Positions 32,033-40,278 of a stretch of 64,000 bases of DNA are shown piece after piece (position 1 is the stretch's first letter; each line of letters opens with the position of its first letter). Under the pieces are notes generated by a model that made no database searches, had not been told where the DNA came from, and saw nothing but the letters and a program-made list of their open reading frames with translations. The DNA lies in contig DUSI01000003.1 in NCBI GenBank assembly GCA_012842685.1, positions 2,622 to 66,621 of the forward strand. The letters are read 5' to 3'. The translations under genes and the position numbers were made by a program. This stretch comes from Candidatus Fermentithermobacillaceae bacterium (GTDB lineage Bacteria > Bacillota > Sulfobacillia > Fermentithermobacillales > Fermentithermobacillaceae).

Positions 32033-32236
32033 CTAGGCTTTCCCCACGCTGGCGACAGCCTCTAAAGAATCTCCGGCGGCTTTCCTCTCCAGGTACAGCA
32101 CGGGATTCCCGCACTTTGGACACCTGGGAGAAAAGCCGCCGGTTTCGCGTTCTTCTCCTCCGCCTGCCTCACGCCGGGTCGACCCTTGCACCCCGCACGC
32201 AAGGCAGATGTACTCAATTGTCCTGGGTGGCCTCAC
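32033..32236 (-). CDS. Small zinc-ribbon protein (2x CxxC), function unknown
   Basis: 67 aa with YICLACG...RCPKCG. GTG start after AAGGGG/GAGGT. Lies between the amidohydrolase stop and the operon terminator. Confidence 0.58.
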   Translation of the reverse strand: MRPPRTIEYICLACGVQGSTRREAGGGEERETGGFSPRCPKCGNPVLYLERKAAGDSLEAVASVGKA

Positions 32237-32272
32237 GACCTCGCCCCCTTAGGATATTCTCCAGTCCACCCT

Positions 32273-33157
32273 TCAATCCAGTGTATTCTGTCGCTGGGAC
32301 CGGTTTCCTTCTGCCCTGGATCTGAAAAACTTTCCAAACACTATCCAGGCATTCCGTCCCAAGATCATCTCCTGTTCCCCTTCGCGAAGCCCCGAAGAAG
32401 CTATCTCCTTCACGTATCTTGTCCACGTAAGCAGAGGGTAGTCGCTCCCCAGCATGATCTTGTCGAGTATACCCAGGTCTTTGAGGGCGAGGTAAACGCT
32501 GGGCCTGTATAGAAGGGGCTGGGCTGCGTTGTCATAATAGACGTGTCCGAGGTCCTTTACCTCCGGCATCGCGGCGTAGAACGGAAGCCCGCCGCCGAAG
32601 TGGGCGAAGATCGTCGTGAGCCCGGGGTTATCCACGGCAAACCGGTAGGCGGCAAGGGGGCCTACGTCTCCCTTTCCTGGGTAACAGTGACCCACGAGCT
32701 CGTTCACGTGGATGAGGACCACGGCGCCGGCTTCTCGGCAAAGGCCAGCTACTTTTTTCATGCCCCCGCCCTGGAGGTCAAACCCGTGCCCGGCCGGGAA
32801 TATCTCCCCCACGCCGCAGGCGCCCATTGAGAGGCACCTCTCCACTTCCGCCAAGGCGCCGGGCGCCTCGGGATCGATGACCGCCAGAAACGCTATCCTC
32901 TCCGGATACGACCGCATGAGTTCGGCGCAGTAGTCGTTCTGAAGCCGCGATATACCCGTATCTTTGAAGGCAAACCCGCAGACTATGGAACGGTCTACTC
33001 CCTGGTCATCCATATCTCTGATGAGGTCTTCGCCCGTCAAGAACCTGGCGTTCTTGGTCCTCGTCAGCAAGGAAAAATGGGGATCCCGCTCCGCGAACGA
33101 AGCGAGATCCCCGACTATCTCAGGCGGAAGTATGTGCGCGTGGCAGTCGATGATCAC
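32273..33157 (-). CDS. Amidohydrolase_2 superfamily metalloenzyme, function unknown
   Basis: IIDCHAH, GVGE, IHVNE, AHFGGG, YDNAA and GSDYP. ATGA-coupled to mce. Confidence 0.83.
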   Translation of the reverse strand: MIIDCHAHILPPEIVGDLASFAERDPHFSLLTRTKNARFLTGEDLIRDMDDQGVDRSIVCGFAFKDTGISRLQNDYCAELMRSYPERIAFLAVIDPEAPGALAEVERCLSMGACGVGEIFPAGHGFDLQGGGMKKVAGLCREAGAVVLIHVNELVGHCYPGKGDVGPLAAYRFAVDNPGLTTIFAHFGGGLPFYAAMPEVKDLGHVYYDNAAQPLLYRPSVYLALKDLGILDKIMLGSDYPLLTWTRYVKEIASSGLREGEQEMILGRNAWIVFGKFFRSRAEGNRSQRQNTLD

Positions 33158-33570
33158 GACTTATGCTCACCGGGCTCCTCAACGAGTTCCATAAGCACCC
33201 CAAAGGTGCTCTTGGGGTGGAGGAACCCTACCTTGGTCCCGTGGGCCCCTTCCCTGGGCTCCTTATCGATGAGCCTGGCTCCGGCTTCCTCGGCCTTCCT
33301 AAGGTCGCCCGCCACATCGTCGGTCTCGAGGGCTATGTGGTGCATGCCCTCGCCGCGGGTGGCGAGGAACTTGGAGATAGGCGAATCTTCGGCAGTGGGC
33401 TCCAGGAGTTCGAGCCTGGTGTCTCCCACCGGGACGAAGGCCACCTTGACTTTCTGGGAAGGTACCTCTTCGACTCCAGTGACCTCCAGCCCGAAGACGT
33501 CCTTCACGATCTTCATTGCCGCGTCGAGGCTGCTTACGGCTATCCCTATATGGTTCACTTTCTTAATCAT
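33154..33570 (-). CDS. mce: Methylmalonyl-CoA epimerase
   Basis: HIGIAV, QKVKVAF, LELLEP, GEGMHHIA and FLHPKSTFGVLMELVE. Confidence 0.93.
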   Translation of the reverse strand: MIKKVNHIGIAVSSLDAAMKIVKDVFGLEVTGVEEVPSQKVKVAFVPVGDTRLELLEPTAEDSPISKFLATRGEGMHHIALETDDVAGDLRKAEEAGARLIDKEPREGAHGTKVGFLHPKSTFGVLMELVEEPGEHKS

Positions 33571-37925: not shown

Positions 37926-39072
37926 CGAGAATCGCCTCCTTAATCGCGTCCAGAATCTCATCGGGCTCGATGTAGCGGCCGCCCACCTTGTTTATCCCTA
38001 TCACCGGGCAAGCGTCTCCCATAACGCGCTTTACGGGCAGGATTATCTGGCCCAGGTTCATCTCGGGGACGATGACCGCCTTGGGCTTCTTGGCTTTAGC
38101 CCTGAGGAGCGGCTCCTCGAGGAAAGGCCAGACCGTGATGGCCCGGATAAGCCCCGCCTTGAGGCCCATGGCCCGCGCATCGCGCACGGCCTTCTTGGCC
38201 GACCTGGCAGTGCCGCCGAAGGCGAACACGAACACTTCGGCGTCGTCGGTAAAGAGCTCTTCCGGCTGGGGCAGATCCTTCTTCCTGGACGCGATCTTCT
38301 CGCTTATCCTCTTTATCTGCCTCGCGCCCACATCCGGATTGTTGGTCGGGAAACCGTCTTCCCCGTGGGTGAGGCCCGTGACGTGGAACCTATACCCCTC
38401 TCCGAAGGCAGCCAGCGGAGCCACCTTGGCCGGGTCGCCGTAGTCGGCGTACGGCTTGTACTGGCCAGGCGGAAGGTCAGGCTTCGGCCGGGCCTTCACC
38501 ATAAGTTCGGATCTGTCGGGCAGGATGACCTTCTCGCGGAGGTGGCCGACCATTTCATCCATGAGCAGGATGACGGGCGTCCTGAGCTCCTCGGCTATGT
38601 TGAACGCGGTTACGGTCAAGGTGTAGGCTTCCAGCACCGACGAGGGAGAGAGCACCACGATCTCATGGTCTCCGTGAGTCCCCCACCTCGACTGCATGAC
38701 GTCGCCCTGGGCAGCAGACGTGGGCATCCCCGTGGACGGTCCTACCCTCTGCACGTCCACCACGACACACGGGATCTCCGCCTGGACGGCGAAACCTATG
38801 TTCTCCTGCTTCAGAGAGAACCCGGGGCCGGAGGTCGCCGTCATGGACTTGACGCCCGCGAGGGAGGCGCCGCAGACGGCGGCCATACTGGCGATCTCAT
38901 CTTCCATCTGAATGAACTTGCCGCCTACCTGAGGGAGGTACTGGGCGCAGAGCTCCGCGATCTCGGTAGACGGCGTAATCGGGTAGCCTGCGAAAAACTT
39001 AAGGCCTGCCGCTATGGCACCTTCTACACACGCTTCATTACCGAGAAGAAGCCTGGGCTTCCCTTCTTTCAT
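37909..39072 (-). CDS. korA: 2-oxoacid:ferredoxin oxidoreductase alpha subunit
   Basis: GNEA, YPITPS, QMEDEIA, TSGPG, QRVGPSTG and EMNLGQ. ATG 39072 is coupled to korD. Confidence 0.9.
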   Translation of the reverse strand: MKEGKPRLLLGNEACVEGAIAAGLKFFAGYPITPSTEIAELCAQYLPQVGGKFIQMEDEIASMAAVCGASLAGVKSMTATSGPGFSLKQENIGFAVQAEIPCVVVDVQRVGPSTGMPTSAAQGDVMQSRWGTHGDHEIVVLSPSSVLEAYTLTVTAFNIAEELRTPVILLMDEMVGHLREKVILPDRSELMVKARPKPDLPPGQYKPYADYGDPAKVAPLAAFGEGYRFHVTGLTHGEDGFPTNNPDVGARQIKRISEKIASRKKDLPQPEELFTDDAEVFVFAFGGTARSAKKAVRDARAMGLKAGLIRAITVWPFLEEPLLRAKAKKPKAVIVPEMNLGQIILPVKRVMGDACPVIGINKVGGRYIEPDEILDAIKEAILGGSAS

Positions 39073-39281
39073 TGTTCCGCCCTCCTCTTCACGACGATGG
39101 CAAAGTCCGGACAGTGCATCTCGCAGAGAAGGCAACCAATGCACTGCGAGGGCGCCTTAACGACCGGGCCGCCTTCATCATCGCTCTCAAGCACTTGCTT
39201 GGGGCAAAACGCTATACAGAGACCGCACTTCTTGCACCATTTTCTGTTCACCGCGATCTCGTACGGTGAATCACTCACCAC
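39069..39281 (-). CDS. korD: 2[4Fe-4S] ferredoxin (delta subunit)
   Basis: WCKKCGLCIAFCP and CIGCLLCEMHCPDFAI. Confidence 0.9.
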   Translation of the reverse strand: MVSDSPYEIAVNRKWCKKCGLCIAFCPKQVLESDDEGGPVVKAPSQCIGCLLCEMHCPDFAIVVKRRAEQ

Positions 39282-40278
39282 TAAGGACCCCCTTCTGCCT
39301 GTTCATTTTGCGATGCTCAAGTACGGAGGACCTCAGTAGATTCACCGAACCCGCGTCCGGCCGGTAGACGAATTCGATGACCGGGGTACCTCTCTTGACC
39401 ATCGCAGACACTTCCTTCTGCCTTCCGGGCGACACTATGACCGCCCTCTTGCCTCGGAGCTTGTCCTGGATGACCGCCGGGTCTCTCTCGGTCACCGTCT
39501 CCACGTTGATCTCGGTGATCCCGGCGTTCTCCATGGACTTCTTCACCCTTTCGGCGAACCTATCGGATATGCAGACCAAGAGCACGCTGCTCCCTGGCGG
39601 CAGCCTGGCTATGCGCACGATGGTCTCCATATCTGGGTCGAGGGCTATCCCGAGGATATCGTCAGACCTCTCGGGCAGAGAGGCCCTGACTTCGTCCAGG
39701 TGGAAAAACGTGGTCACGACCATATCTGAACTGGCGATCGTATCTATCGCCTCTTGGGACCCGCGAAAAAGGTCGTCGGTAAGCACGGGAAGGACCTTTA
39801 CGCCGGTGCCCAGTTCCAGTTCCTTGCTGAAATAATCGAGCTGCTCCCGGTTGCACTCTACGAACGCGATCCTCACGTCGGAAAGCATCTTCCTGCGCTC
39901 TTCAACCCTGCGCGTCACGACCTGGAGGAACTCATCGGGGTTCACCCCTAGGGCGAGGGCGTCGTCGAGCGCCGAATCTACCACCCTGTTCAGGCGCTCT
40001 CTCTTGTTCTCGAGCCTGAGGAGGTCGTCGGCCTCGGCGACAAAGGTACCCCGTCCTTGCCTTGACGTGATGAGGCCTTCTGCTTCGAGCTGCCTGTAGG
40101 CGAGGCTTACGGTATTTCGGCTTACTCCAAGCTGGGCTGCGAGGGCTCGCTCCGTAGGAAGCCTCTGCCCCCTCTTCCATTCACCACTGGCGATCAGCGC
40201 TTCAATCCTTCTTTTCACCTGCAGGTAAATCGGCAGGCCGCCCTTCCTGCGAAGGTCGAAGGATGACTTCTCTTCCAA
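39271..40278 (-). CDS. GntR-family transcriptional regulator with long C-terminal effector domain
   Basis: GntR wHTH PIYLQVKRRI...RLPTERALA..LGVSRNTV..AY..LE..GLI..RQGRGTFV. 335 aa. TTG after GGGAGG. Confidence 0.88.
   Translation of the reverse strand: MEEKSSFDLRRKGGLPIYLQVKRRIEALIASGEWKRGQRLPTERALAAQLGVSRNTVSLAYRQLEAEGLITSRQGRGTFVAEADDLLRLENKRERLNRVVDSALDDALALGVNPDEFLQVVTRRVEERRKMLSDVRIAFVECNREQLDYFSKELELGTGVKVLPVLTDDLFRGSQEAIDTIASSDMVVTTFFHLDEVRASLPERSDDILGIALDPDMETIVRIARLPPGSSVLLVCISDRFAERVKKSMENAGITEINVETVTERDPAVIQDKLRGKRAVIVSPGRQKEVSAMVKRGTPVIEFVYRPDAGSVNLLRSSVLEHRKMNRQKGVLSGE

Follow-up and report, generated by a model that had tools for sequence, protein, structure and literature searches.

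What is a block of ten genes doing between yajC and the mraZ/dcw cluster of a thermophilic fermenter? We addressed this question in a 64 kb window, the whole stretch of DNA analysed (64,000 nucleotides (nt) of contig DUSI01000003.1 from a Candidatus Fermentithermobacillaceae bacterium), in which the block occupies positions 32033-40278 on the minus strand; searches for further genes covered the entire window. An initial annotation, made from the letters alone, had proposed a dedicated, regulated module for oxidative glutamate catabolism whose final steps might be performed by uncharacterised proteins. Our data support the block as one regulated, co-transcribed unit, and it is probably a GntR-controlled operon by which a thermophilic fermenter of the class DTU015 catabolises glutamate toward propionate. 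Close homologues of its proteins bear the name Ca. Fermentithermobacillaceae, which puts the host in this class (Ca. Fermentithermobacillia, Firmicutes_E). Its members are uncultured thermophiles with a fermentative life, found in digesters, in hot springs and in coal-fire soil, and the methylmalonyl-CoA pathway is unmentioned in the paper describing it (PMC10215811).

The ten genes are co-oriented, in the order gntR, korDABC, gdh, mcmA, mce, an Amidohydro_2 gene and a zinc-ribbon gene:

39271-40278, minus strand: gntR, 335 amino acids, GntR winged helix
39069-39281, minus strand: korD, 70 amino acids, 2x[4Fe-4S] ferredoxin-like delta subunit, Fer4 families
37909-39072, minus strand: korA, 387 amino acids, 2-oxoacid:ferredoxin oxidoreductase alpha subunit, POR_N and PFOR_II
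37095-37925, minus strand: korB, 276 amino acids, beta subunit binding thiamine pyrophosphate (TPP), TPP_enzyme_C
36566-37102, minus strand: korC, 178 amino acids, gamma subunit, PF01558 (POR)
35279-36529, minus strand: gdh, 416 amino acids, hexameric-type glutamate dehydrogenase, ELFV_dehydrog and its N domain
33584-35257, minus strand: mcmA, 557 amino acids, large substrate-binding subunit of a split methylmalonyl-CoA mutase, PF01642 and TIGR00641
33154-33570, minus strand: mce, 138 amino acids, methylmalonyl-CoA epimerase, TIGR03081
32273-33157, minus strand: Amidohydro_2 gene, 294 amino acids, metal-dependent TIM-barrel enzyme, PF04909
32033-32236, minus strand: zinc ribbon, 67 amino acids, CxxC...CxxC

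Five of the gene junctions (gntR/korD, korD/korA, korA/korB, korB/korC and mce/amidohydrolase) are overlaps of 4-17 nt, and the remaining four are gaps of 13-36 nt. In the pathway that we propose, glutamate dehydrogenase (GDH) would convert glutamate to 2-oxoglutarate, yielding NAD(P)H, and a KorDABC-type oxidoreductase would convert 2-oxoglutarate to succinyl-CoA, reduced ferredoxin and CO2. McmA, as the large subunit of a split B12 mutase, would then rearrange succinyl-CoA to (R)-methylmalonyl-CoA, and the epimerase would turn the (R)- into the (S)-form. Completion is expected from conventional proteins encoded elsewhere in the genome, namely the B12 small subunit with or without MeaB and a methylmalonyl-CoA decarboxylase, and a last, ATP-yielding step from propionyl-CoA to propionate would likewise be encoded elsewhere. 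The protein families bear out the earlier claim of consecutive steps starting from glutamate, and they lead as far as (S)-methylmalonyl-CoA.

How firmly can each enzyme be named? The order of the kor genes is D-A-B-C, that is delta (2x4Fe-4S), alpha, beta (TPP) and gamma, and among the NCBIfam models those for 2-oxoglutarate:ferredoxin oxidoreductase (KOR/OOR) score best by a wide margin over POR, VOR and IOR models. KorA passes the cut-off of the generic 2-oxoacid model NF006412 (549 bits, cut-off 411) and matches in the PDB 1yd7, the alpha subunit of a Pyrococcus 2-ketoacid oxidoreductase (377 bits), as well as 8ys5, '2-oxoglutarate synthase alpha' (303 bits). For KorB the best NCBIfam match is NF007207, the beta subunit of 2-oxoglutarate ferredoxin oxidoreductase (334 bits, below the cut-off of 364), and the VOR and POR beta models give only 68 bits. 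KorC scores 189 bits on NF006323, for which the cut-off is 235, and KorD reaches 53.8 bits on its best model, OorD, where 93 would be needed. Since beta, gamma and delta stay below the KOR-specific cut-offs, the assignment rests on clade and context, in which the GDH and mutase steps on either side are suggestive of 2-oxoglutarate. The 2-oxoglutarate:ferredoxin oxidoreductase of the initial annotation thus stands with its four subunits and their best models, Kor and Oor, but three of these subunits fall short of equivalog level. The PDB matches listed for gdh, 39 in number, are all GDHs, with the Thermococcus structures 1euz (482 bits) and 1bvu (481 bits) at the top; on the NCBIfam equivalog GdhA_Arch it scores 537, below the cut-off of 750.

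McmA matches PF01642 with 798 bits and TIGR00641 with 844 bits and is 74-76% identical to McmA of Caldanaerobacter/Thermoanaerobacter. Alignment to 1req_A revealed that the equivalents of Tyr89, Arg207 and Tyr243-His244 are kept (RQYAGF, VARGTY), in agreement with the Tyr89/Arg207-type residues read earlier. We take Tyr89 and Arg207 (P. shermanii numbering) to bind the carboxylate and to separate methylmalonyl-CoA mutase (MCM) from isobutyryl-CoA mutase (ICM) and 2-hydroxyisobutyryl-CoA mutase (HCM). The VAFD motif supplies Ala, as in P. shermanii MCM, and HcmA has Ile, Gln and Asp at the three compared positions. What had been annotated simply as a mutase is therefore a large subunit with MCM residues, but, being without a B12-binding domain, not a complete enzyme. 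The epimerase exceeds the cut-off of the TIGR03081 equivalog (161 bits, cut-off 115).

The same comparisons bear on a different pair of activities, in which a broad 2-oxoacid oxidoreductase would work with an isobutyryl-, ethylmalonyl- or 2-hydroxyisobutyryl-CoA mutase, and gdh would recycle 2-oxoglutarate for transaminases. The best PDB match of McmA is the 2-hydroxyisobutyryl-CoA mutase HcmA (600 bits, compared with about 525 for MCM), the beta, gamma and delta subunits lie under the KOR equivalog cut-offs, and gdh is dispensable in two lineages. However, the mutase carries the Tyr, Arg and Ala of MCM and not the Ile, Gln and Asp of HcmA, and a bona fide methylmalonyl-CoA epimerase comes next. 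Moreover, its nearest relatives are the McmA proteins of canonical mcm-meaB-mce-mmd operons, and the kor subunits score far lower on the POR, VOR and IOR models. Identity as a 2-hydroxyisobutyryl-CoA mutase as such was rejected on the three substrate-discriminating residues, and we regard the alternative pair as a whole as very unlikely.

Is the block transcribed as one unit? It was described earlier as a packed, co-oriented operon between a promoter and a strong terminator, and we found all ten genes in their places and both signals, the promoter as an extended -10 directly after the yajC terminator:

40422-40439: yajC terminator, directly upstream of the operon promoter
40404-40411, minus strand: promoter TGTATAAT, extended -10 with weak -35, invariant in four species
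31973-32010, minus strand: operon intrinsic terminator, bulged GC-rich hairpin GGCCGC(A)GCCGG-loop-CCGGCGCGGCC, then TTTTTGTTT

The operon terminator was read by eye from the sequence, as its bulge made the terminator scan miss the hairpin, and the mraZ promoter comes after it. No Rfam family matched in 31800-40500, thus no cobalamin or other riboswitch.

Words of the stretch are present in 20 digester/sludge metatranscriptomes, and Logan contigs were placed for eight of them (X1-X8). The operon was found in these 8 digester metatranscriptomes, and RNA contigs cover the whole of it, where continuity of an assembled contig means unbroken coverage and not single molecules. One contig of X2 spans 32524-40315, and X1 has two overlapping contigs, 32028-34731 and 34726-40390, the second of which stops 14 nt past the -10 element. 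The following stretch, 40391-40444, is unbridged by any RNA contig in X1, the next contig beginning at 40445, inside yajC. At the other end, X1-X4 have no RNA contigs on 31837-32008; the sole fragment of X2 over 32009-32026 has 18 nt and a depth of 2, and the mraZ contigs end at 31832-31836. In X5-X8 all operon genes are expressed, in more fragments. The coincidence of the contig breaks with the predicted promoter and terminator argues that the contigs stem from RNA and not from contaminating DNA. Co-transcription, without which the initial annotation would have given up its reading, is thus observed, with RNA contigs that span the block and stop at its promoter and its terminator. Separately, a single RNA contig of X7 passes straight from 35473 to 36252 and leaves out the 778 nt of gdh in between, with only 22 nt on its shorter side; it is most likely a chimera with the transcript of a related organism.

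Is the arrangement particular to this genome? A search for the same gene order elsewhere had been suggested, and the block recurs in the same slot, between queA-tgt-yajC and mraZ, in five further DTU015-type loci:

GCA_012841375 and GCA_050952025 (L085/L086): syntenic block in the slot between yajC and mraZ
GCA_050260675 (L088): syntenic block in the slot between yajC and mraZ
GCA_040771825 (L089): syntenic block, without gdh
Metagenome contig FZPS01000194 (L095): syntenic block, without gdh and without the amidohydrolase gene, zinc ribbon kept

The conserved core is hence gntR-korDABC-mcmA-mce together with the zinc ribbon. All of these genomes come from a single class and have the same flanking genes, so that the synteny is largely inherited and gives weak evidence for a functional coupling of the last genes.

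Fuller operons were sought by scanning JGI metagenomes with the mutase, followed by tblastn and then Pfam/NCBIfam. A complete regulator-led operon was found on one strand, with small gaps, at 3779-17631 of Ga0207951_100180 (L097, GC content 52%). An M19 dipeptidase gene precedes it; the operon then begins with the regulator, a divergent 2-oxoacid:ferredoxin oxidoreductase (OFOR), gdh, mcmA and the B12 small subunit, goes on with meaB, mce, mmdA and a biotin carrier, and closes with OAD_beta and a PduL-type phosphate propanoyltransferase (252 bits, cut-off 209). Its regulator is orthologous to GntR of the window, being 44% identical over the whole length with the same C-terminal motifs. The OFOR of L097 consists of a CdhB-like subunit (CO_dh, PF02552) that replaces the ferredoxin delta, the alpha, beta and gamma subunits and a 92-amino-acid open reading frame, and it matches no NCBIfam equivalog. 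That a non-orthologous OFOR occupies the same slot supports, by context, 2-oxoglutarate oxidation at that position.

In a second metagenome locus (L096, 2-12821, GC content 35%), ackA, an NfnAB/GltD-like pair (DHODB_Fe-S_bind/NAD_binding_1 and Fer4_20/Pyr_redox_2), gdh and an Asp23-domain gene precede mcmA, the B12 subunit, meaB and mce, after which follow mmdA, OAD_gamma, a biotin carrier and OAD_beta. Here gdh is tied to the methylmalonyl-CoA decarboxylase pathway for a second time, independently of the first. The Caldanaerobacter operon (L091) has the order mcmA-B12-meaB-mce-mmdA-mmdD-mmdC, without kor or gdh, and MeaB is present in all of L091, L096 and L097. The window operon is thus a trimmed variant of the fuller regulator-led operon of other uncultured Bacillota, which leads there from glutamate as far as propionyl-phosphate.

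What, then, do the last two genes contribute? The start of the amidohydrolase gene overlaps the stop of mce (ATGA), and the gene follows mce in four DTU015 lineages. The protein matches PF04909 at 97 bits, and in Foldseek searches with its AlphaFold2 model (pLDDT 94) the nearest folds were ACMSD, LigW, gamma-resorcylate decarboxylase and IDCase (isoorotate), with TM-scores of 0.6-0.7 and 15-23% identity. Its invariant residues include D4, H6, H8, H150, H186 and D239, an HxH...H...D candidate metal site. These features place it in the ACMSD-like decarboxylase/hydratase branch of the superfamily and no further.

Relatives of the amidohydrolase stand in other company. In Chloroflexota, the homologue is fused to a domain of the uracil-DNA glycosylase (UDG) superfamily in many proteins of about 461 amino acids (P0054-P0117), and at 6001-9034 of L092 it overlaps a separate UDG gene, behind which come LigT and an HhH-GPD glycosylase. 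These fused or adjacent homologues are about 38-43% identical to the window protein and have the same invariant residues. In three Synergistaceae loci, the homologue (45-47% identity) stands immediately behind rplJ-rplL and faces an RtcB-archease pair in convergent orientation:

L090, 3785-6452: Synergistaceae amidohydrolase locus
L093, 3408-6075: Synergistaceae amidohydrolase locus
L094, 2856-5526: Synergistaceae amidohydrolase locus

Some family members also match the TatD_DNase model. The Chloroflexota fusions and the L092 locus hint that this ACMSD/IDCase-like enzyme might take part in the repair of nucleic acids or nucleobases. In 80 genome loci outside DTU015, no mcm or mce was found near the amidohydrolase homologues.

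A hairpin lies at the beginning of the gene:

33069-33112, minus strand: 15-bp GC-rich hairpin, then AUUUUUCCUU, inside the first 90 nt of the amidohydrolase gene

The 111-nt stretch around it has a folding free energy (dG) of -44 kcal/mol (z = -3.2). The hairpin is kept in L085 and L088, not in L089, and in L095, which has no amidohydrolase gene, a strong hairpin stands directly after mce. From one side of the hairpin to the other, RNA depth drops by a factor of about 6 to 11 in X5, X6 and X8, where contigs end at 33123-33138, and shows no fall in X1-X4. We read the hairpin as a candidate leaky terminator, the last two genes probably being reached by read-through after partial termination.

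It could be argued that the amidohydrolase is a biotin-independent, metal-dependent (S)-methylmalonyl-CoA decarboxylase, or another methylmalonyl-CoA enzyme, that replaces Mmd, with the zinc ribbon as an accessory; if true, the operon and the B12 subunit alone would take glutamate to propionyl-CoA. The operon is without mmd genes, the gene is joined to mce by the overlap and kept behind it in four lineages, the nearest folds are non-oxidative metal-dependent decarboxylases and the candidate metal ligands are invariant. Yet the gene is missing in L095, where the kor-mcmA-mce core is the same and the zinc ribbon is retained, as well as in L096 and L097; none of the 80 loci pairs a homologue with mcm or mce, and homologues at about 38-47% identity accompany UDG, LigT, HhH-GPD or RtcB/archease genes. 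The 5' end of the gene holds the terminator-like hairpin at which RNA depth falls in three runs. Known ACMSD-like enzymes act on carboxylates on sp2 carbons, not on malonyl thioesters. We therefore consider such a decarboxylase highly improbable.

The DNA-glycosylase contexts, the absence from L095 and the hairpin make any pathway role of the amidohydrolase unlikely. The initial proposal that uncharacterised terminal proteins perform the final steps is accordingly not borne out, neither by L095 and the complete operons, which lack the amidohydrolase, nor by its relatives, which sit with UDG, HhH-GPD, LigT and RtcB and not with mcm or mce, nor by the hairpin that precedes the body of the gene. 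We infer that the Amidohydro_2 and zinc-ribbon genes are 3' passengers and not pathway enzymes.

The zinc ribbon itself has the motif RPPRxxEYICLxCGxQG...CPxCG...ER and is kept in five DTU015-type loci, including L095 without the amidohydrolase. Its family is small and lineage-restricted, with 31 matches (12 below 1e-10) among 1.84 billion representatives. No Pfam or NCBIfam family was found for it, only sub-threshold matches to generic zinc ribbons, including the FmdB-like Zn_ribbon_8. The zinc-ribbon profile also matches the very long proteins P0376, P0387 and P0383 (846-1764 amino acids) in 6-16 separate stretches; a similar CxxC...CxxC unit may be repeated there, or the matches may reflect composition.

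In which direction does the pathway run? The net reaction, glutamate to propionate, 2 CO2, NH4+ and 2 H2, is favourable only at low H2 and fits a methanogenic reactor. We think it somewhat more probable than the contrary that flux goes from glutamate to propionate, judging from gene content and genomic context. This direction is favoured because the fuller operons L097 and L096 carry a Na+-pump-type decarboxylase without biotin carboxylase, PduL or AckA, and peptidase neighbours, and because DTU015, without respiration, is a predicted peptide fermenter with Rnf and the operon is strongly expressed in digesters. The contig depth of the operon is similar to that of mraZ and yajC and roughly 2- to 10-fold above that of tgt/queA. 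Members of DTU015 are predicted to be respiration-free fermenters of peptides and amino acids with Rnf (PMC10215811). A DTU015 species is also among 18 for which H2-sensitive catabolism of amino acids, coupled to the production of formate, is listed in digesters; seven amino acids, one of them glutamate, are named for that group of 18 species and not for DTU015 specifically (PMC7382037).

Several points weigh against glutamate catabolism toward propionate as the function of the operon. All four enzymes are reversible, so that gene content alone leaves the direction unfixed, and the kor-mce cluster of Cloacimonadota is read in reverse, as propionate oxidation (PMC13082233). Contig depth is a poor measure of expression. 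The substrate of the KOR, 2-oxoglutarate, is predicted from sequence, with beta, gamma and delta under the equivalog cut-offs. The absence of gdh from L089 and L095 suggests that the core is 2-oxoglutarate to methylmalonyl-CoA and not glutamate specifically. In the operon and in the 64 kb window we found no B12-binding domain or subunit (PF02310, DxHxxG), no MeaB/ArgK, and no carboxyltransferase, biotin carrier or phosphotransacylase. Finally, a gene that is purely a passenger would have no need of translational coupling to mce or of retention in four lineages, both of which the amidohydrolase gene shows.

As to the partners, the MmdABCD parts (carboxyltransferase, biotin carrier, OAD_beta and gamma membrane subunits) were likewise not found within the window, the remaining genes of which are all housekeeping genes. 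An unlinked B12 small subunit can be called common, since no B12 subunit is nearby in 11 of the 23 metagenome mcmA loci that have at least 3 kb on either side. With the Caldanaerobacter small subunit as query for a DTU015 counterpart, all of the 120 matches listed were at least 82% identical. The single operon to methylmalonyl-CoA that had been proposed thus holds as one transcribed block, but it is without a B12 subunit for the mutase, and gdh is dispensable in two lineages.

Reversibility opens the way to the opposite flux, in which propionyl-CoA, from propionate or from the breakdown of Val, Ile, Met or Thr, would be carboxylated to methylmalonyl-CoA and rearranged to succinyl-CoA; KOR would turn the latter into 2-oxoglutarate by reductive carboxylation, and GDH would aminate 2-oxoglutarate to glutamate. 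Its purpose would be glutamate synthesis with an incomplete tricarboxylic acid (TCA) cycle, or propionate oxidation as in Cloacimonadota, whose kor-mce operon is so read (PMC13082233). A complete TCA cycle is not reported for the DTU015 reference genome, and Thermococcus-type GDHs are often NADP-linked, both of which speak for this direction. These arguments are countered by the fuller homologous operons, which carry the Na+-pump-type decarboxylase without biotin carboxylase together with PduL/AckA and adjoin peptidases, by the predicted life of DTU015 on peptides, which are rich in glutamate (PMC10215811), and by the high expression in digesters, like that of housekeeping genes and more typical of catabolism. 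Taken together, we consider the reverse direction a possible but rather unlikely one. The oxidative glutamate module of the initial annotation is upheld as a regulated, co-transcribed unit of consecutive steps, with L097 favouring propionate formation, but its flux direction is still a matter of inference.

How might the operon be controlled? GntR matches PF00392 (6e-23, 81 bits) in its N-terminal winged helix, and orthologues that are 44-87% identical head the same operon in five other lineages. In the precomputed Pfam hits, its C-terminal domain is PF27163 (YmtS_Ross), an alpha/beta, uncharacterised domain; a local Pfam search gave no match in this C-terminal part. The C-terminal 250 residues fit no classical GntR effector domain (FadR/FCD, HutC/UTRA, MocR, YtrA, AraR). 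Foldseek with the AlphaFold2 model of the regulator (medium confidence, pLDDT 77) matched the winged helix-turn-helix only and no effector domain, and a literature search on 'YmtS' found nothing relevant. Candidate binding sites lie around the promoter and in the 5' leader:

40440-40447, minus strand: GATCCAAT box upstream of the promoter, candidate GntR operator half-site
40330-40344, minus strand: palindrome GATCCAAAATGGATC in the roughly 120-nt 5' leader, candidate operator
40315-40322, minus strand: GATCCATT, leader repeat, candidate operator

GATCCAWW has 7 matches in the 64 kb window, a count as chance predicts, and four of these seven cluster in 40315-40447, within 133 bp around the promoter and leader. 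In the alignment, TCCAATCC is invariant across four DTU015 species, and the two AGATCCA repeats of the leader are conserved in four species. The palindrome was rejected as the sole operator, as it is kept only in the two closest species, whereas the GATCCAWW boxes are conserved. The regulator probably binds the clustered boxes around promoter and leader, which we regard as its candidate operator.

Elsewhere in the window, the minus strand carries at 6850-9170 an Asp/Glu racemase gene and, directly behind it, a gene for an Amidohydro_3/Amidohydro_1 enzyme (537-548 amino acids, Pfam), beside divIVA. This pair may serve the salvage of D-amino acids or peptidoglycan peptides.

How does the operon compare with known systems? 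Among the closest known systems are the canonical mcm-mmd operons of Thermoanaerobacter/Caldanaerobacter (L091), which are alike in the split McmA, the epimerase and the chemistry from succinyl-CoA to (S)-methylmalonyl-CoA. They have the B12 subunit, MeaB and mmd genes, which the window operon is without, whereas the latter adds korDABC, gdh and the GntR regulator upstream, and the amidohydrolase and zinc ribbon downstream. The L097 operon shares the orthologous GntR/YmtS_Ross regulator and the order regulator, oxidoreductase, gdh, mcmA, mce; it differs by its non-orthologous OFOR, by the B12 subunit, MeaB, mmdA, biotin carrier, OAD_beta and PduL, and by having neither amidohydrolase nor zinc ribbon.

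Oxidative fermentation of glutamate to propionate was reportedly worked out by Plugge et al. in 2001 (Arch Microbiol), with enzyme and labelling work in Thermanaerovibrio acidaminovorans and Gelria glutamica. The likeness extends to the route via 2-oxoglutarate, succinyl-CoA and methylmalonyl-CoA and to the thermophilic, syntrophic setting. Those organisms belong to other lineages, in which the route is known physiologically and no such operon or regulator is known to have been described; when the literature was searched for a gene cluster of this kind, from glutamate to propionate, in Thermanaerovibrio or Gelria, no description came to light. A pathway from succinate to propionate with a Na+-translocating methylmalonyl-CoA decarboxylase is known from Propionigenium modestum and Veillonella (PMC8473912).

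Among the other systems, the Thermococcales combine GDH with a four-subunit KOR, and it is the GDH structures of Thermococcus that come nearest to the window GDH. OorDABC of Helicobacter pylori has the same subunit set and D-A-B-C order as the window kor genes, whose best NCBIfam models are Oor/Kor. In these organisms, however, succinyl-CoA goes to succinate and ATP or into the TCA cycle and not to a mutase. The sbm-ygfD-ygfG-ygfH operon of E. coli (scpA-argK-scpB-scpC) is likewise headed by a mutase and serves the route from succinate to propionate, the mutase gene being followed by that of a biotin-independent decarboxylase. Its decarboxylase has the crotonase fold, its mutase is fused to the B12 domain, and it is without KOR, GDH and epimerase. 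The kor-mce cluster of Ca. Cloacimonadota (ISME J 2026) resembles the window operon in that KOR genes adjoin the epimerase in a digester bacterium, but it belongs to another phylum, is without gdh or mcmA and is read as propionate oxidation (PMC13082233).

The operon thus holds only enzymes of known kinds, for a pathway already known from physiology; what appears to be new is the arrangement as a regulator-led operon. No description of it, in its full or its DTU015 form, was found in the searchable literature. Comparison with the fuller operons shows how such a pathway is assembled and trimmed across lineages. Glutamate is among the main amino acids released from protein-rich waste, and the build-up of propionate is a classic cause of digester failure. 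The operon supplies marker genes, as well as a candidate regulator and operator, for tracking syntrophic glutamate oxidation in reactors, and it gives the uncultured class DTU015 a concrete, testable role.

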